Below are positions 11,817-20,652 of a stretch of DNA of 64,000 nucleotides, piece by piece. Location of the stretch: sequence record PZ445527.1; one strand, written 5' to 3'. Both the position numbers and the translations under genes were made by a program. Within the stretch, counting starts at the first letter, position 1, and each line of letters begins with the position of its first letter. The notes below the pieces were generated by a model. The model was given only the letters and a program-made list of their open reading frames with translations, had not been told where the DNA came from and did no database searches. Origin of the DNA: a phage.

Positions 11817-11925
11817 AGTTAATTTCTCCTCTTTAATAACAATATTATAATAGTATTGGAAAATTTTATCAAGAAATTTTTATTTTTCCATAAAGAAAAG
11901 GAGGACATAAAGTCCTCCTCCAATA

Positions 11926-14900
11926 TTAAGAATTACCAAGAGATTTCAGGGTGGTTCCATTCTCATTAAGAGCCAGTTCCACGGCATCTCTGAAAGCAGT
12001 ACTATTATTCGATGCAAAATCTCTGAAGCTTGCTGCATCCATAGTGCTGATATTCAGGATAATAGGTCTACCAGAAGAGGACCTTGATCCTTCGGAAAGC
12101 TGATCATTAGGCGTAGCTTTCATAGGAACCATAGGAGTAATTACCTCGGTACCATGCTCACCCATTTGATAGCTTACTCCAGGGTACATCATACCACCCT
12201 CAGCACGCGGAACAAAGGAGTTAGCATTACCAATACCTTTATCACCACGTAGGTAGGATAGTTCTCCTGAACTAGCTTGCATAGATACATCAACATTTTT
12301 CTGTCGTTCACCTAGAGTTAAGTACTTAGTAGTATTTGCTCCAGAATCCACAGAGGGTATAGAGGATGCACTAGAAGCAGAGGCTAAGGATAGTGCGCCT
12401 GCAGCAGCCGCAGTGGCCATCATCGTTAACCCTAATGGTAAGAACGGACGGGTAGCTGCAGCGTTCATCATAGCTACGGCTGTAGATATGATTATTTGCT
12501 TTTTAGCTTCTCGCTGCTGTATCTTAGTCTTTTCTGCCTCCAACTTCTTGATTTTAGCTTTAGATTCCTCAGACTTACCATCACGCTTCTGTTCTGCTGC
12601 AATAGCCTGGTCTATTGCACTTATTTGCTGGTTAGCAGAATATGCCATCATCTGTCCCACCATCTGCATACCTGCAGATATGGTTGTTATACTATCCAAG
12701 CTATTTTGTGCATTAGCCACCACTGCTAAGGAGAAATTACCTATGCTGTTAGCCAATGCTGTAGAAGCAGAATCCACTTCTGACATCTTAGCTATAGCCT
12801 GATCATACATAGACATTCTATTCTCAAAATCAGCAAACTCTTTATCATCACCAGATAATCCATTGGTAGGAGTGAATGTACCCCCTAGTGAGGATATGAC
12901 TGATTTGTACTTTTGATTCTCTCTTTGCTTTTTAAGCTGTTCTAGGGCCGCTGAAGTTTTATAAATCTCATTACGATATTTTATTTCTTCCTCAGTATTA
13001 GCCTTAGACAGTTCTAGCTGTTGCTGCAGAATGGATAATCTTTCCACAAGAATTTGAGATTGACCAGTAACATTTCTTTGTGTTTGGCTAACCTCTAATG
13101 CATCCATGAGGGCTGACACATGTGAGGCAGTTGCCTGATTTTCTGCTTCCCATATTTCTCTACTTATTTGTGCTTGAGCACGCCTTGACTGTTCTACTTT
13201 AGCTTGACCATCCGCTTGTTTAGAGTATAACTTCGCTTTTTCCTGCTCTAACTGCAGCTCTAGTCTTAACTGCGCTAAACGATACTGAGTACTCGTCATA
13301 GTGCGGTCATTCAGAAGAGCTATTTCTCTGTCAACACCAAGAATTTTATCTGTTTGATCCTTAACCTTTTTAGCGGTTTCAAATCCTTGAGCTTTAGTAT
13401 TAAGAATTTCTGTCTCTATCTTAGCTACTTGTTTTAATGCTTCGGGATCATTAGGGTTAATAGCTAGCAACGCTTTTGCTGCCGTAAGTTGTTCCTGCTG
13501 TTGACGCAATAATACTTCTCTAGCTGCTGCCTCTGCCTTAGCCTTGTCCTTAGTCTGGTTGTAAACCTCATCTTTGCGCTTAGCTACTTCCAGTGCATTT
13601 TGCTCACTCTTATCCATAGCAGTTACATATTCTGCTAGGCCTTTCTGAGCATTCTTAATTTGATCTAGGCTTGTGAAACCTAGATTTAGATCCTTAACTA
13701 GAGTATCTGCACTTTGCCCAGTTATTTTAGAAGTATCTTCTATTGCCTTTACAACACTGTTTAGGTCACTAGAGGCTTTCTTAGCGTTAGTAATACTACT
13801 TGCCGCCATTTTTATGTTATTTGCAGTATCACTAGAACTTTTCTTCAGGAAGTCAAAGTTCTTCTGTATCTCTGCTGCAGCTTTGAGGTTCTTAGGATCA
13901 ATTTCGAATACTCCTTTTTCTCCCGGGACAGCAGTGGCAGCATACTTCATTTTAGCTCCTAACTGCTCAGCCAGATTGCCATTACGTAACAGAGCTTCCC
14001 CGGTATCCTGTACCGCTTGTCTTAGAACCTTCTCAGTTTTGGCTCGTTCTTCTATTTCTTTGTTTTGACGAGCCAACTCATTAGTAAGTTGTACTACTAA
14101 CAGATTACTCTCATCTCTAGGAAGACCACCAAAAGCAGTCAATGCATTGACAAAAGGAGCAGTAAATGATTGTTTTGCTCTAATATCATCCAACTGCTGT
14201 TTAATCTCTTGAGCTTTCTTAATACGTTCTTCACTTTCTTTAAGATATGTATCCAGATCTTCTTGAGCCCCTACAGCATTCCCTATTAAAGCTGTAACGT
14301 TTTCAGATGGAGTAATTTTAGCGGATGCACTACGTGCCATTGCAGAAACTCTTGATTGAGAAGCCTTAGTTTGGTACAAGAAAGTATTAAGGGTATCCAT
14401 AACAGGATTTAAGTATGTAGCAGCACTTTGTTGTAAACTTCTTAGAGCTGAGTTAGCATTGGCAGCAAATTGTTCCCAAGAGGTTGCCTTAAGAGCATCA
14501 TCAAGGTATCCAAATCTACGAGTAGACTCTGCAATAACCTCATTTGCATATGCTTGTTGTTTCTGGTAGGTAGTCAGGCTATCTACAGTATATTTAATGC
14601 CTGTACTGGTAGCATTTAACTGTTTAACATAATTTGCATACGCATCGTTAAGACGAATAGTAACACCAAGTTCGTCCAGAAGTTCGATTTCTTGTTTTGA
14701 TACACCCTTAATTACACGGTTAAGTGCATCAGTCATATCAACACCAAGAACAGCAGCAGCACGACGTGCTACTAAACCAAACTGCTCCAATTGTTCACTG
14801 TCAAATCCATAAGCGGAGGCAGTAGATGCTTGACGCATAGCTTCTTCAAAGGATATAGCACCATTAGTAGCGTTTTGTAGGGATAAAGCTAATGTCTGTA

Positions 14901-15588
14901 CCGGTGTGCCTGTTATGGTGCCAACAATAGTACCGAACTGTTCTAGCCTATTTAGCTGGTCACCTACTTTTAGGCTCTCAAAAGCAGTCTGCAGGACGAA
15001 TACGTTAGAAGCAAGAGCTGCATACATAATAGGTAAACTACCACCAATTTTAGCCATTGCTGCAAAATCACGAGTAGCGCCACGAGCGGAACCAGAAGTA
15101 TTACCTATAGCTCTAGAAGCCCTGCTAGCAGCACCTGTAGTATTATTAAATCCTTTAGCTGTACCTCCTAAAGCCCTATTGGTGTCATACAATCTATCTT
15201 GAACCTTCTCTGTTGCAGCTGCAACATCATTACCCATTGCTTTAACAGACCTAGATACTCCATCAAATCCAGCCTCTAGTTTGTCTGCTACTTCAATCAT
15301 TGCAATAGCTAGATCATCCAGCTTAGCACCTATACTATCAATAGATTTAGTGATACTAAGCATGCCCCTACTAGCTTGCATATTTGTAAGACTTTTTGCT
15401 GCCCTATCCGCTGCCCTCTCAATGGAGTAAAGGGTTTTGGGCATTTTACCTAACTGCTCATTTGTCAGTTCGGAAGCAGCAGCAGCGTTTTCTAACGCAT
15501 CAGATACGTTTTCAATAGACTTTGCAGTACGGGTTGCCCCTTTCTGTTTAACGTCTATTAGTAATTCTCGTATTAGCTTATCAGTCAT
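11926..15588 (-). CDS. tail tape measure protein (pb2-like)
   Basis: 1220 aa, extended coiled-coil, hydrophobic segment, C-terminal region; size matches T5 pb2. Confidence 0.88.
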   Translation of the reverse strand: MTDKLIRELLIDVKQKGATRTAKSIENVSDALENAAAASELTNEQLGKMPKTLYSIERAADRAAKSLTNMQASRGMLSITKSIDSIGAKLDDLAIAMIEVADKLEAGFDGVSRSVKAMGNDVAAATEKVQDRLYDTNRALGGTAKGFNNTTGAASRASRAIGNTSGSARGATRDFAAMAKIGGSLPIMYAALASNVFVLQTAFESLKVGDQLNRLEQFGTIVGTITGTPVQTLALSLQNATNGAISFEEAMRQASTASAYGFDSEQLEQFGLVARRAAAVLGVDMTDALNRVIKGVSKQEIELLDELGVTIRLNDAYANYVKQLNATSTGIKYTVDSLTTYQKQQAYANEVIAESTRRFGYLDDALKATSWEQFAANANSALRSLQQSAATYLNPVMDTLNTFLYQTKASQSRVSAMARSASAKITPSENVTALIGNAVGAQEDLDTYLKESEERIKKAQEIKQQLDDIRAKQSFTAPFVNALTAFGGLPRDESNLLVVQLTNELARQNKEIEERAKTEKVLRQAVQDTGEALLRNGNLAEQLGAKMKYAATAVPGEKGVFEIDPKNLKAAAEIQKNFDFLKKSSSDTANNIKMAASSITNAKKASSDLNSVVKAIEDTSKITGQSADTLVKDLNLGFTSLDQIKNAQKGLAEYVTAMDKSEQNALEVAKRKDEVYNQTKDKAKAEAAAREVLLRQQQEQLTAAKALLAINPNDPEALKQVAKIETEILNTKAQGFETAKKVKDQTDKILGVDREIALLNDRTMTSTQYRLAQLRLELQLEQEKAKLYSKQADGQAKVEQSRRAQAQISREIWEAENQATASHVSALMDALEVSQTQRNVTGQSQILVERLSILQQQLELSKANTEEEIKYRNEIYKTSAALEQLKKQRENQKYKSVISSLGGTFTPTNGLSGDDKEFADFENRMSMYDQAIAKMSEVDSASTALANSIGNFSLAVVANAQNSLDSITTISAGMQMVGQMMAYSANQQISAIDQAIAAEQKRDGKSEESKAKIKKLEAEKTKIQQREAKKQIIISTAVAMMNAAATRPFLPLGLTMMATAAAAGALSLASASSASSIPSVDSGANTTKYLTLGERQKNVDVSMQASSGELSYLRGDKGIGNANSFVPRAEGGMMYPGVSYQMGEHGTEVITPMVPMKATPNDQLSEGSRSSSGRPIILNISTMDAASFRDFASNNSTAFRDAVELALNENGTTLKSLGNS

Positions 15589-15600
15589 AATTTATTTTTC

Positions 15601-15636
15601 CCAATAAAAAAGGCTCTGGGCAAATCACCCAGAGCC
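15601..15636 (-). terminator. intra-operon rho-independent terminator upstream of tape measure gene
   Basis: hairpin GGCTCTGGG-caaatcac-CCAGAGCC followed on - strand by TTTTTTATTGGGAAAAATAAAT; same motif as the terminator after the capsid gene. Confidence 0.6.
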
Positions 15637-15671
15637 AAGCCTCATCGTGGAACGCCCATTGGAGGAAACTT

Positions 15672-16040
15672 TTACCGTGCTCGAGATTTAGCATGTGGCT
15701 TAACGTTAGGTATTCTACCGTTTTGCGGCTTATGCTTCTCAGCACGTTTACGTGCAGCGTCTACAGCTTTAGCATCAAATATATTGATAATGTGTAGAAC
15801 AAATTCTTTCTCTATAGGATCGGTAATCCCATAAATATCGAATAAAACACCTAAAGCAGCCCTGTCTTTACCTATAAAGATAGGGAAGTCACCAGGTATG
15901 AAACAGTCAACTAGACTATTATAAATATTCATACTAATAGCTACAATAGGTGGAAAGTCTTCAAGTTCAACAGGCATAGCCTTAGGATCAGGCTCTATAC
16001 CCATTGATTCACAAAGTATTAAATATTGTTGTTTAGTCAT
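15672..16040 (-). CDS. putative tail assembly chaperone (downstream frame)
   Basis: 122 aa between tail tube and tape measure genes; its frame is open upstream to nt 16127 and overlaps the 3' end of the preceding ORF in the +1 frame. Confidence 0.4.
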   Translation of the reverse strand: MTKQQYLILCESMGIEPDPKAMPVELEDFPPIVAISMNIYNSLVDCFIPGDFPIFIGKDRAALGVLFDIYGITDPIEKEFVLHIINIFDAKAVDAARKRAEKHKPQNGRIPNVKPHAKSRAR

Positions 16041-16101
16041 TTTAGATGCTGAGCTTTTAATACACTTATCTGCAAAATCAGCAACAGCATCTAGTAATTC
16101 T

Positions 16102-16506
16102 TTACGCTTTTGAGCTACGAAAAGTGTCTAAGTGGAACACTGTCTGGTTGATCCAAGAATCAAACGCAGCAGAGTTCTGCATAAGCATTACAGCATTATC
16201 ACGACTAAAGGGAACTTCAGTAGTAGGATCAGCATCTGTTTCAATCAGCATCAGCTTCTCAACGTCACCTACAGTCAAACCAGTCCAACCTTTAATTGCA
16301 GCATCAACGAAAGCTTCAATAAACTTATCGTCATCCTGTACTTGAACTAGAGTACCATTAACCCACTCATCGCGTTTGGCGGAAGAGATAACACGCTTCG
16401 AGGTAGCACGAGACATATAGTTAAGCTCTAACTTAAAGTTAGGCATACCTGGGTATGAAAGAGTAATAGTACGGGTATCGAGAGTAATATCTTTTAAGTT
16501 AATCAT
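16102..16506 (-). CDS. putative tail assembly chaperone
   Basis: 134 aa, acidic; canonical position between tail tube and tape measure genes. Confidence 0.45.
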   Translation of the reverse strand: MINLKDITLDTRTITLSYPGMPNFKLELNYMSRATSKRVISSAKRDEWVNGTLVQVQDDDKFIEAFVDAAIKGWTGLTVGDVEKLMLIETDADPTTEVPFSRDNAVMLMQNSAAFDSWINQTVFHLDTFRSSKA

Positions 16507-17402
16507 TATTTTCTTTCTCCAAAGAAGTTTATTTCTACAGGATCTGAATCAGCAGTAGGAATTACATCATACTCTACCTGATACAAATCTGAGAATTTTA
16601 GGCGTTTTGAAATACGTGCTAAAGGAAATGTTACAGAAACATATTTATTTTTAATAATTAGTGGAGTTCTTGTTTCAGGATCTAGATTCAAGAACTTATC
16701 TCCTACCAATCTCTTAACGTAATAGAAAGCTAGCGTTGCGGAAGCATTCATTTCATTGACATAAGCTCGTTTATTAGTATAAACTTTATTTATATCAAAT
16801 ATACTTCTATCTTCTCTCCAAGAACATTGTTGTTGGAAGGACATAGATGCTGAAATTAATGCCGGCAGCGGAGCGCTATTAGTATACACAGCTGGAGGAC
16901 TATACGGAAGTACTTCACCTTGTGTAATTGTATATCCATCACGGAAAGTAGATACTTCAGAGAATTTTCCAGACTCAATACCAACATTTAGAATTGGTAC
17001 ACTCTTATCTAGAGAAAAATCAACTGTTGATACATAACAGTTTTCGAAATAAATACAGCTATTATTATAATTAATAATATACATATTGAACATAATAGGT
17101 TCAATATTGGGAGTATTTCTTGGCAAAAATAATGAATTTCCCTCACGCGTGAATCCCATCCAATCAAAGAAATTAGACTCAATAAGCGTAGTACTGAAAT
17201 TTATTGCCAATGAAATAGATGAAGGATCTTGAGCATTAATAATAGAGTCTGCATAGTTTGTACGATTATGAATAGTACGTCTAAGAGTTTTAAACTCTTG
17301 AAAAGACGTACTAGCGTCATAGTTAGAGAGGGCATCAAAATGATACCCTCTACCATCATACTCAATAACTATTTTAGACTCTCGCATGAGAGAATAAAAC
17401 AT
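16506..17402 (-). CDS. tail protein (T5 p140-like)
   Basis: 298 aa; synteny downstream of major tail tube gene. Confidence 0.5.
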   Translation of the reverse strand: MFYSLMRESKIVIEYDGRGYHFDALSNYDASTSFQEFKTLRRTIHNRTNYADSIINAQDPSSISLAINFSTTLIESNFFDWMGFTREGNSLFLPRNTPNIEPIMFNMYIINYNNSCIYFENCYVSTVDFSLDKSVPILNVGIESGKFSEVSTFRDGYTITQGEVLPYSPPAVYTNSAPLPALISASMSFQQQCSWREDRSIFDINKVYTNKRAYVNEMNASATLAFYYVKRLVGDKFLNLDPETRTPLIIKNKYVSVTFPLARISKRLKFSDLYQVEYDVIPTADSDPVEINFFGERK

Positions 17403-17406
17403 TTAA

Positions 17407-18798
17407 TTAACCACCTGTTACAGTAATCTGTTTAGTACCTTTAACTCCAGAACCATCTTTAGCAGTAGCTTCTACAGTTACTGCACCAGTTTTACCAGCA
17501 TTTGCTGTTAGTAACCCTGTTGCACTGATAGTAGCTGCATCACCGGCAGTGATAGCCCAAGTAACTTCCTTATTCTTTGCGGAAGAAGGAGTAACTTCAA
17601 CACTCATCTGAAGAGTAGCTGATCTATTTAATGTAGTAGCATTTCCAGCAGACTTAACAGTAATTGCGGTTACAGCTTCAGAAGCACCGTCACCGTTAAC
17701 AATTAGATTATTAATAGTTGTTTTGGTATATTTACTAGAGAAGCCCAAGTAACCCTCATCACCAGCATCCAGATCTGACGGAATAGCTTTAAATTCTACT
17801 GAAGTACCAAGTACATCATCAGTCTCAATAGTAGGAATATTAACGTGTGCCTGTTTAGCTACCAGAATAGCGGCAGGACGTTCATCATCGTATTCACCAC
17901 CAAGTACCAGAGCGATTTCGAAGCGGTTAACTACTTTCAGAGCTTTGATAAGATCTTTATACAGTTCCATAGAACCAAGAGATTTATCATTCAGGTAAGC
18001 AGTTAATGAACCAGTTAATTCAAAAGCACCAGTAAATGAGCCGATAGGAATAGTAACACGAGACATTACGTTAGGTGTCAGATAAGTAATGTTGTTGTTA
18101 ATAGTAAAAGTACCACCGGTAATTGGTATATCATAAGACTTATTGGTATCCATGTCCTTGATCTTCAAGACAGTTAATTTGTTCTTAATGTAAGAACCCT
18201 GGATAGTCATATAAGTTTCATCATCAATACCTATTTTATCTGGATCAAATGGTTGCGCGTCCAGTGGGATTAGCTGGTTACCATTACCAGACCAAGTTAC
18301 ACGACCAATATCTTCAATATCAACGTTAACTTCTGCCTGATTAATCTGACAGGAATCGATATAACTCCATGTTTTATCAGTCAGAATGTAAATATGTAAC
18401 ATTGCTAACTCATGATAGGAGTTATCTTTAAAGTTAACCATGAAGTTAGTAGCATTATTATGTGCTCCAGTAGTTCCTTCAAGATTAATAGCTCTACCAC
18501 TAGAAAGTGCATGCCATAACATATAGTCAGGAACAATTTGTTTGCTAGTAGTTTTATCCTTGTAGGGCAGGATATAGGTAGAGAAGCTCCACTCAGCCGC
18601 ATTCAAGGAATCGTTAAAACGTTTAGAACCACGAGTTGGACGCGGACCAGCTTCATTAACAGTAATATCTGTTGAGTTACTGTCCTGACCCCAAGAAATA
18701 TCATCCTGAACTAGAATCTCTTGCGTGTTGGTCTTATTGTGACCAGTCTTAACCGTAGACACGAAGATTCGAGTATTACGTAATAGTTGTAAAGACAT
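17407..18798 (-). CDS. major tail tube protein (pb6-like) with C-terminal Ig-like domain
   Basis: 463 aa; C-terminal Thr/Ala-rich Ig-like segment; size and position match T5 pb6. Confidence 0.82.
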   Translation of the reverse strand: MSLQLLRNTRIFVSTVKTGHNKTNTQEILVQDDISWGQDSNSTDITVNEAGPRPTRGSKRFNDSLNAAEWSFSTYILPYKDKTTSKQIVPDYMLWHALSSGRAINLEGTTGAHNNATNFMVNFKDNSYHELAMLHIYILTDKTWSYIDSCQINQAEVNVDIEDIGRVTWSGNGNQLIPLDAQPFDPDKIGIDDETYMTIQGSYIKNKLTVLKIKDMDTNKSYDIPITGGTFTINNNITYLTPNVMSRVTIPIGSFTGAFELTGSLTAYLNDKSLGSMELYKDLIKALKVVNRFEIALVLGGEYDDERPAAILVAKQAHVNIPTIETDDVLGTSVEFKAIPSDLDAGDEGYLGFSSKYTKTTINNLIVNGDGASEAVTAITVKSAGNATTLNRSATLQMSVEVTPSSAKNKEVTWAITAGDAATISATGLLTANAGKTGAVTVEATAKDGSGVKGTKQITVTGG

Positions 18799-20081: not shown

Positions 20082-20593
20082 TATACTCTCCTGTAAACTT
20101 CAATAATAGTACGAATATGCTCTGGAATGCCAGACTTAGTATTATTAAAAGTAACTGTTTCTCCGCCAATTGTTTTAGCTTGACGGTAATCCTGTTTATG
20201 CCAATGGTCTACTAGCATACATGCTGCAAGTTTGAGATCCTCAGGCATTGGATTAAATCCCCCTTGTGTGTACTCTACATCCATATAACCTTCTGGAGGA
20301 CTAAATTTAAGAAGTATAACCCCATCAGAGTACAACTTATACTGTTCGGGATCTATCTCCTTATCATTAATAGTCATTTTGATTATTGAAGTAGCTGAGG
20401 GAGAGCTTAAAAAGTATTTTTTACGAGTAGGTTTTGTATTGATTAACTGGTCTACCGCATCAGCATCATCCATACCTAAAAGGCTAGTAATCAGCGCATT
20501 GGCAGCAGTAATCATCACCTCTACTCCAGATTCTAGTTCCGGTCGTTTTAACCCGCCATATAATCTATAGTCTTCAGCTGTGATTATTTGCAT
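20081..20593 (-). CDS. head completion / connector protein (putative)
   Basis: 170 aa; first gene after major capsid terminator. Confidence 0.4.
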   Translation of the reverse strand: MQIITAEDYRLYGGLKRPELESGVEVMITAANALITSLLGMDDADAVDQLINTKPTRKKYFLSSPSATSIIKMTINDKEIDPEQYKLYSDGVILLKFSPPEGYMDVEYTQGGFNPMPEDLKLAACMLVDHWHKQDYRQAKTIGGETVTFNNTKSGIPEHIRTIIEVYRRV

Positions 20594-20599
20594 TTATTT

Positions 20600-20631
20600 T
20601 TCCCAATAAAAAAGGAGAGCCGAAGCTCTCC
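20600..20631 (-). terminator. rho-independent terminator after major capsid protein gene
   Basis: hairpin GGAGAGC-cgaa-GCTCTCC followed on - strand by TTTTTTTATTGGGAAAAATAAATG, which runs into the next start codon. Confidence 0.7.
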
Positions 20632-20652
20632 TTATCGGCTGAAAAGCCTGTA

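Follow-up and report, generated by a model that had tools for sequence, protein, structure and literature searches.

A Candidate +1 Frameshift Site, UUU_CGU, in the Tail Assembly Chaperone Gene Pair of a T5-like Phage

Introduction

The closest described counterpart of the genes examined here is the phage lambda pair that encodes the chaperones gpG and gpGT (Levin, Hendrix & Casjens 1993; Xu, Hendrix & Duda 2004, 2013, 2014; summarised in PMC5009743). We analyzed the corresponding pair, here called G and T, in PZ445527.1, a 64,000-nucleotide (nt) stretch of DNA (the window, which means the whole stretch analyzed) that belongs to a Tequintavirus (T5-like phage) and carries its tail genes on the minus strand. 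As in lambda, two open reading frames (ORFs) lie directly upstream of the tape measure gene, and the second overlaps the first and has no initiation signals of its own, so that a fusion would be expected as the minor product. Furthermore, the predicted G domain may resemble the solved chaperones 3klu (YqbN) and 2ob9 (HK97), and distant homologues of the pair carry lambda-like X_XXY_YYZ heptamers. Unlike in lambda, however, the frame relation is +1 and not −1, the proposed shift involves one shifty codon (UUU_C) in place of a tandem-slippage heptamer, no sequence similarity to lambda G or T can be detected, and the gene p140 is inserted between the tube gene and G. We consider it likely that ribosomes make a G-T fusion protein by shifting +1 at UUU_CGU.

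Forward shifts in this gene pair are also described elsewhere. In the SEA-PHAGES training set of actinobacteriophage tail assembly chaperones, 350 forward slippery-site cases are listed versus 2,368 backward ones (PMC10274946), which makes the +1/−2 geometry a known minority variant; the sequences and hosts are unrelated to those considered here, and these forward cases have no established common motif. The sister Tequintavirus Shivani (KP143763, CPT_Shivani132/133) has the same genes as the window, and its fusion is known as an annotation only. Its join is drawn as a 2-nt overlap (−2), whereas the shift proposed for the window is a 1-nt skip (+1).

The site in the window can also be set beside bacterial +1 sites. 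The +1 frameshift of prfB (RF2) involves re-pairing at CUU_U, an upstream Shine–Dalgarno (SD)-like stimulator and a slow UGA codon in the A site. As in prfB, a single P-site tRNA would re-pair one base downstream in the window (CUU_U in prfB, UUU_C here), but the window's site has neither an upstream SD-like stimulator nor a slow A-site codon. In E. coli, UUU-pyrimidine (UUU-Y) sites are reportedly prone to +1 shifts and avoided in coding sequence, and +1 shifting is said to have been measured at UUU/C-CGG/U dicodons. The window's site resembles these reported sites in that UUU is followed by C, so that tRNA-Phe could re-pair on UUC, and in that the window also avoids UUU-Y. On the other hand, the E. 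coli sites are said to be error-level or engineered, whereas the site in the window is apparently productive and is conserved across a virus family.

The Overlap and the Spacer Between G and T

The features on which the argument rests are the following (aa, amino acids; CDS, coding sequence):

16102..16506, minus strand: G, a G-like tail assembly (tape measure) chaperone ORF of 134 aa, the zero-frame product and homologue of T5p139 (ORF list, PHROG 313, good SD)
15672..16040, minus strand: T, a T-like domain ORF of 122 aa from its ATG, homologue of T5p138 = T5.142 and predicted C-terminal part of the fusion (PHROG 3914, PHROG 313)
16102..16127, minus strand: overlap window in which the G and T (+1) frames are both open (frame analysis)
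16117..16122, minus strand: proposed +1 shift site UUU_CGU (in-frame TTT_CGN in the overlap of 48 +1 loci)
16041..16101, minus strand: annotated "intergenic spacer" of 61 nt, read here as the T-frame coding linker of the G-T fusion (…KELLDAVADFADKCIKSSASK; codon variants, AlphaFold)
15672..16506, minus strand: predicted G-T fusion CDS of 277 aa, join of 16506..16120 and 16118..15672 (built from the +1 shift)

An earlier reading of this DNA from its sequence alone (the original prediction) had delimited both ORFs correctly and had placed them between the tail tube and tape measure genes. This placement holds in a broad sense; p140 lies directly upstream of G, and the tube gene pb6 is one gene further. 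A comparison with T5, which the same reading had recommended, gave counterparts for both ORFs, T5p139 for G (96% identity) and T5p138/T5.142 for T. G matches PHROG 313, "tail assembly chaperone", with E = 5.6e-34 over profile positions 12–141, and T matches PHROG 3914 at E = 6e-56 as well as PHROG 313 at 2.5e-17 (positions 170–258). Pfam gave no match for G, T or the extended T (for G, none at E ≤ 1 in Pfam-A), and PF27119 (Phage_YdaY) has precomputed matches on G proteins of distant relatives, several of them marked weak.

When codon starts on the minus strand are counted, the G frame falls at 0 mod 3 and the T frame at 2 mod 3, and T is thus +1 (equivalently −2) relative to G, with its codons one base 3' of the G-frame codons. 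The T frame has a TAG at 16130–16128 and is open from 16127, and the G stop codon is at 16104–16102. Including that stop, the overlap is 26 nt, in line with the ~25 nt in the +1 frame that the original prediction had proposed. In a single genome, such an overlap is weak evidence for recoding. Its upstream boundary is itself unconstrained, because in the DT57C-like loci (L001, L002 and L029) a synonymous TTA to CTC change in G abolishes the T-frame TAG and leaves the T frame open for 86 nt instead of 26.

Are the 61 nt between the two annotated genes really intergenic? We compared 27 distinct Tequintavirus/Epseptimavirus sequences and counted synonymous versus non-synonymous codon variants in each frame. 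The T frame showed 19 synonymous and 3 non-synonymous variants, among them an AGC/TCC/TCT serine switch, and contained no stops. The other two frames gave synonymous/non-synonymous counts of 1/23 and 3/19, with stops present, and the first 20 codons of T proper gave 19/6. Because the T frame stands at 19/3 versus 1/23 and 3/19 elsewhere, the codon variants indicate that the "intergenic spacer" is protein-coding in the T frame, upstream of the sole available start codon.

The start of T itself carries few of the expected signals. From 16127 to the ATG at 16040, the T frame of the window contains no ATG, GTG or TTG. The original prediction had held that a strong ribosome-binding site for the downstream ORF, a conserved start and the lack of a conserved overlap would speak against a fusion. 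We observed that there is essentially no SD before the T ATG (−0.1 kcal/mol of anti-SD pairing, compared with −4.2 to −9.1 in 10 neighboring genes), while the G start has a good one (−6.4 kcal/mol). The Met position of T is Ile (ATT) in Sugarlandvirus and Phe or Leu in pVp-1, Cilsick and vspsw1, where the ATG is missing, and the overlap is kept in every intact relative.

These observations bear on the simplest alternative, namely that there is no recoding, that G and T are separate proteins, that T starts at its own ATG at 16040 and that the overlap is incidental. Most GenBank records, including that of T5, do list two genes, the T-start Met is kept in many lineages, and T5.142 made from the T ATG folds, binds and activates the Schlafen tRNase RorSlfn5 (PMC13056530). 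However, the 61 nt upstream of this ATG evolve as T-frame coding sequence, the ATG lacks an SD, and the start is not kept in Sugarlandvirus or the Vibrio phages. The family comparison given below, in which 76 of 78 loci have an overlap with a frame-matched shift motif and distant homologues have textbook −1 heptamers, argues in the same direction. We therefore regard two wholly separate proteins as unlikely.

A coding linker could also arise without any frameshift if an N-terminally extended T were made from a non-canonical or upstream start within it. The pVp-1 record starts T at a TTG, and in P0004, P0006 and P0111 T starts at an upstream TTG, GTG or ATG. These upstream starts differ between lineages, however, and no ATG, GTG or TTG is present there in the window or in the Tequintaviruses with the 26-nt overlap. 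Such a start would also leave unexplained why the T frame is always open past the G stop with a matched motif, and we consider it extremely unlikely.

The Shift Motif Across the Family

We compared 78 loci from IMG/VR contigs, annotated phages and metagenomic contigs with distant homologues. The annotated phages were T5, DT57C, Klebsiella Sugarlandvirus, Pectobacterium My1, Vibrio pVp-1, Cilsick, vspsw1 and D13, and Proteus Novosibvirus. T is in the +1 frame at 48 of the 78 loci (~16 lineages), and the overlap of each of these 48 contains TTT_CGN in frame (N = T, A or C). The other intact loci, 28 in number and more distant, have T in the −1 frame, and in all 28 the overlap contains a canonical X_XXY_YYZ heptamer (G_GGA_AAC, A_AAT_TTT or A_AAA_AAC). 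The two exceptions to this rule of frame and motif, AhSzq-1 (L063) and L068, are visibly broken assemblies and were left out; in the RefSeq record of the Aeromonas phage AhSzq-1 (NC_047949), the tail region is in fragments with several apparent frame errors. An overlap that contains the matching shift motif at 76 of 78 related loci is far more than chance would give.

In the window, a search for slippery sequences near 16102–16127, which the original prediction had suggested, found the in-frame TTT_CGT at 16122–16117. The canonical −1 heptamer X_XXY_YYZ does not apply in the window, T being +1; its absence counts against a "lambda-type −1" shift and not against a frameshifted chaperone pair.

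The +1 lineages are saturated at synonymous sites, yet their Phe codon is always TTT (never TTC) and their Arg codon always CGN. The A-site Arg codon is CGU, CGA or CGC in the 48 +1 loci and never CGG, and the whole TTT_CGN site is invariant in the 27 unique Tequintavirus/Epseptimavirus sequences. In the −1 relatives with G_GGA_AAC, the homologous Phe codon alternates between TTT and TTC. Furthermore, the overlap of My1 and Vibrio phage D13 is only 14 nt long (…AAC/TCC TTT CGT TAA), which confines the shift to the codons AAC/TCC-TTT-CGT-TAA.

Could the fusion instead arise from a −2 shift or at a different place in the overlap, such as the A-run TCA_AAA_GCG (16113–16105)? The frames alone do not separate +1 from −2, the Shivani CDS is drawn with a 2-nt overlap, and the A-run does lie inside the Tequintavirus overlap. 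However, the A-run is missing in My1, D13, pVp-1 and others, where the overlap ends right after TTT_CGN, and TTT_CGN is the sole element common to all +1 lineages. Re-pairing by −2 from TTT or CGN would lead to ACT/CCT or TTC, with at most one or two matches in most lineages, and a −2 move from any codon of the minimal overlap reaches non-complementary triplets. The re-pairing of tRNA-Phe from UUU to UUC is the only cognate one possible in every +1 lineage. A −2 shift or a different site is thus quite improbable, and of the two shifts named in the original prediction, "+1 (or −2)", the +1 shift at UUU_CGU is much the more plausible.

The T-run at the site raises a further question, which is whether RNA polymerase might slip there and drop one U in some transcripts, so that T would come into frame at the level of transcription. 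The window has four T at this place (CTTTTC), and slippage during transcription is one of the other known ways in which such fusions arise (PMC5009743). Most lineages, however, have only three T (AAC TTT CGA). Productive transcriptional slippage normally takes runs of ~7–9 identical bases. The homopolymer runs at the site are too short for this, which makes polymerase slippage very unlikely.

The +1 and −1 arrangements are closely related. In 27 of the 28 −1 loci, the heptamer borders directly on the homologous Phe codon or takes it in, and in the remaining one it lies further downstream. The two arrangements are one T apart, with AACTTTTCGAA in the −1 group and AACTTTCGAA in the +1 group. A single insertion or deletion (indel) can consequently flip the direction that is needed and leave both the N-F of the G frame and the F-E of the T frame in place. 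When aligned, the predicted fusions of the two groups are collinear through the junction, with no gap. Moreover, the dipeptide F-R is present at the shift position in 59 of 118 representatives of G-type clusters (≤50% mutual identity), which indicates that the +1 type is common and no curiosity of T5.

In a search of 1.8 billion representatives, there were no natural in-frame G-T fusions among the best 150. One protein, P0003, appeared to span the junction in frame and was discarded, as it comes from a noisy assembly with further indels or frame errors.

The Predicted Fusion Protein

The predicted fusion matches PHROG 313 as one continuous stretch (residues 1–262 versus profile positions 12–258). 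Its AlphaFold model has a mean pLDDT of 90.6, with helix 126–149 running straight across the junction at 129/130. When this model was compared with viral models by Foldseek, full-length fused chaperones of the siphophages Loki, CcrColossus, Seurat and 9NA were matched, and the best match was the 277-aa "tape measure chaperone" of Salmonella phage Shivani. A Protein Data Bank sequence search returned a chance match only, and a homologous-protein search with the fusion gave no match at E ≤ 0.001, which we take as uninformative.

The predicted fusion and the Shivani protein are 97% identical over 277 columns. In GenBank KP143763, the latter is a two-piece joined CDS (93207..94038) beside a short G CDS, and the nucleotides of its shift site are identical to those of the window. 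The G-T fusion has therefore been annotated in a sister Tequintavirus since 2015, and a frameshifted chaperone pair is a known kind of feature. On the other hand, the records of T5 and DT57C and the others that we opened annotate two separate genes with no join. The Shivani genome announcement does not mention the fusion, and we found no discussion of a frameshift in T5-like phages in the accessible literature, which did not include Zivanovic et al. 2014 on T5 morphogenesis. The predicted +1 junction peptide is …HLDTF-VAQKR…, which would give the tryptic peptide …NQTVFHLDTFVAQK.

The programmed shift making a fusion chaperone that the original prediction had proposed is thus supported by the coding spacer, the missing SD, the overlaps at 76 of 78 loci and the joined CDS of Shivani.

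Proposed Mechanism of the +1 Shift

How would the shift proceed? Most ribosomes would make the 134-aa G protein and terminate at 16104–16102. A minority would slip by +1 at UUU_CGU (16122–16117), where the peptidyl-tRNA-Phe (anticodon GAA) would leave the wobble-paired UUU (16122–16120) and re-pair with the fully cognate UUC (16121–16119). The C at 16119 would be the skipped base, and decoding would resume at GUA (16118–16116). The T frame would then be read through the 26-codon linker and the T domain to give the 277-aa G-T fusion. If lambda is a guide, the tape measure protein pb2 may be coated by G and by the G portion of GT, the T domain may recruit the tube protein, and neither G nor GT would be present in the virion.

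A low, unstimulated efficiency would be expected, because the site has no upstream SD-like element and no slow A-site codon. Low efficiency would agree with an excess of G over GT like that in lambda. In the 64 long ORFs of the window, TTT is followed by C or T in 78 of 373 cases, compared with 137 of 260 for TTC, and this avoidance of TTT-pyrimidine fits selection against shift-prone UUU-Y sites.

Several points weigh against a +1 shift at UUU_CGU. The site has no known stimulator; an upstream SD-like (GGAGG-like) element was sought by eye and none was seen, and downstream structure was not systematically searched. With 269 uses, CGT is more frequent than any other Arg codon in the window, and the A site is thus not "hungry". 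Nor is the dicodon by itself unique, as six further in-frame TTT_CGN are present in the candidate ORFs of the window (at 2147, 2813, 37042, 37120, 44964 and 56014). The Shivani join spans 832 nt for 277 aa, which means that it was written as a −2 and not as a +1 shift. The lineages that keep the T-start Met belong to both the +1 and the −1 groups, which leaves some probability to independent initiation. Finally, T5.142 is soluble when expressed by itself from its ATG, and in this form it acts as a Schlafen trigger (PMC13056530).

Gene Neighborhood and the Terminator Before the Tape Measure Gene

A 1-kb query from the locus showed 97.3% identity to Salmonella phage Kenya-K20 and 95.9% identity to Escherichia phage DT57C, and at least 80% of it was covered in 441 phage records. 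The gene order on the minus strand is pb6, p140, G, T, hairpin, tape measure protein pb2, pb9 and pb3, and from pb6 to pb2 it is the same in all relatives compared. The neighboring features are as follows:

17407–18798, minus strand: pb6, major tube protein (gene order)
16506–17402, minus strand: p140 baseplate tube protein (PF23779, E = 4e-141)
15640..15668, minus strand: conserved non-coding 29-nt element TTTCCTCCAATGGGCGTTCCACGATGAGG, between the T stop and the terminator (conservation)
15601..15636, minus strand: intrinsic terminator, a stem-loop at 15636–15612 followed by a T-tract (scan, fold, conservation, T5 annotation)
15590..15613, minus strand: 24-nt motif CCTTTTTTATTGGGAAAAATAAAT, comprising the stem end, T-tract and next-gene leader (exact repeat at 20592–20615)
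11926–15588, minus strand: tape measure protein pb2 (gene order)
20592..20633, minus strand: post-capsid terminator, a hairpin at 20633–20612 with the second copy of the 24-nt motif (scan, repeat search)

The terminator hairpin that had been predicted between the chaperone ORFs and the tape measure gene is present. Its stem, GGCTCTGGG-N7-CCCAGAGCC, has 11 pairs, of which 7 are G-C, and is followed by TTTTTTATT (T-tract TTTTTT to 15606). In a 16-kb scan, this site (15636–15606) ranked first among terminator-like sites, its 81-nt context folds at −31.4 kcal/mol (z = −3.4), and the T5 record AY587007 annotates the counterpart as a putative rho-independent terminator. A hairpin with a U-tract directly follows the T stop across Demerecviridae, with compensatory changes in the stem. 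The stem arm GGCTCTGGG of the window is GGCCTAGGG in Sugarlandvirus (stem GGCCTAGGG/CCCTAGGCC) and GCTCTAGGCG in the Proteus phage, and the Vibrio phages and L065 have other stems at the same place.

There are exactly two copies of the 24-mer CCTTTTTTATTGGGAAAAATAAAT in the window, one at 15590–15613 and one after the capsid gene at 20592–20615, compared with no matches in shuffled sequences. The motif that the original prediction took to be shared with the post-capsid terminator thus comprises the last two stem bases, the T-tract and the leader of the next gene, while the hairpin stems themselves differ. With this terminator, fewer transcripts would probably extend into the tape measure and distal-tail genes, whose products are required at much lower copy numbers. 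Its likely role is to hold the expression of the low-copy distal tail proteins below that of the tube and chaperone proteins.

The element TTTCCTCCAATGGGCGTTCCACGATGAGG begins with the anti-SD-like UUUCCUCC and is present as a single copy in the window. It is kept in Sugarlandvirus, My1 and Proteus Novosibvirus and partly in pVp-1, while the flanking proteins are only 31–60% identical. An Rfam search of 15300–16700, which includes TTTCCTCCAATGGGCGTTCCACGATGAGG, gave no match.

In the −1 relatives L030, L032, L046 and L050, the stretch ~30–75 nt past the T stop holds a weak hairpin with a T-run and then a promoter match ahead of the tape measure gene, a near-consensus sigma-70 TTGACA-N17-TATAAT. 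From these sequences, an expression boundary seems to separate the chaperones from the tape measure gene in general, even without the T5-type terminator. Directly after the tape measure stop in the window (11897–11921 and 11844–11872, minus strand), there is a 10-pair hairpin, GGAGGAGGAC…GTCCTCCTTT, and then a promoter match ahead of pb9 that is 11/12 sigma-70-like (TTGATA-17-TATAAT).

Between the terminator and pb2, T5 (AY587007; L055:3385-4182) has an inserted ORF of 265 aa, in which a CapR homology domain and a treble-clef zinc finger are recognized. This ORF is absent from the window (compare 15589–15611) and from DT57C. In pVp-1, Cilsick and D13, an ORF of 245–253 aa without a Pfam match occupies the same position.

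Implications

Could the frameshift determine in what form a host defense meets the T domain? T5.142, which is the T ORF from its ATG, binds and activates the Schlafen tRNase RorSlfn5, and the escape mutations D18G, D68G and I72T map to the T5.142 ORF (PMC13056530, 2026; the word "frameshift" does not occur in that paper). The numbering of T in the window agrees with the T5.142 residues D18, D68 and I72. We tentatively suggest, at slightly less than even confidence, that Demerecviridae and about half of the larger chaperone family use an unstimulated +1 UUU_CGN shift that interconverts with the −1 heptamer by a single-base indel, and that T5.142 in infected cells is mainly or only the rare 277-aa fusion and not a free 122-aa protein.

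With the fusion itself already on record in Shivani, the remaining interest lies in the precisely delimited and conserved site, the +1/−1 dichotomy of the family and the way in which the Schlafen trigger is presented. For annotation, the T5 reference and most of the ~440 T5-like records show separate or "hypothetical" genes with a false 61-nt spacer, and the joined CDS should be added. If true, the proposal would mean that a whole family makes natural use of a bare UUU-pyrimidine +1 site. The +1 sites and the −1 heptamers of their homologues, one codon away, would form a clean evolutionary pair for studying the direction and efficiency of shifting. Furthermore, whether RorSlfn5 is triggered by an abundant free T or by a scarce G-T fusion changes how sensitivity and escape are to be read.

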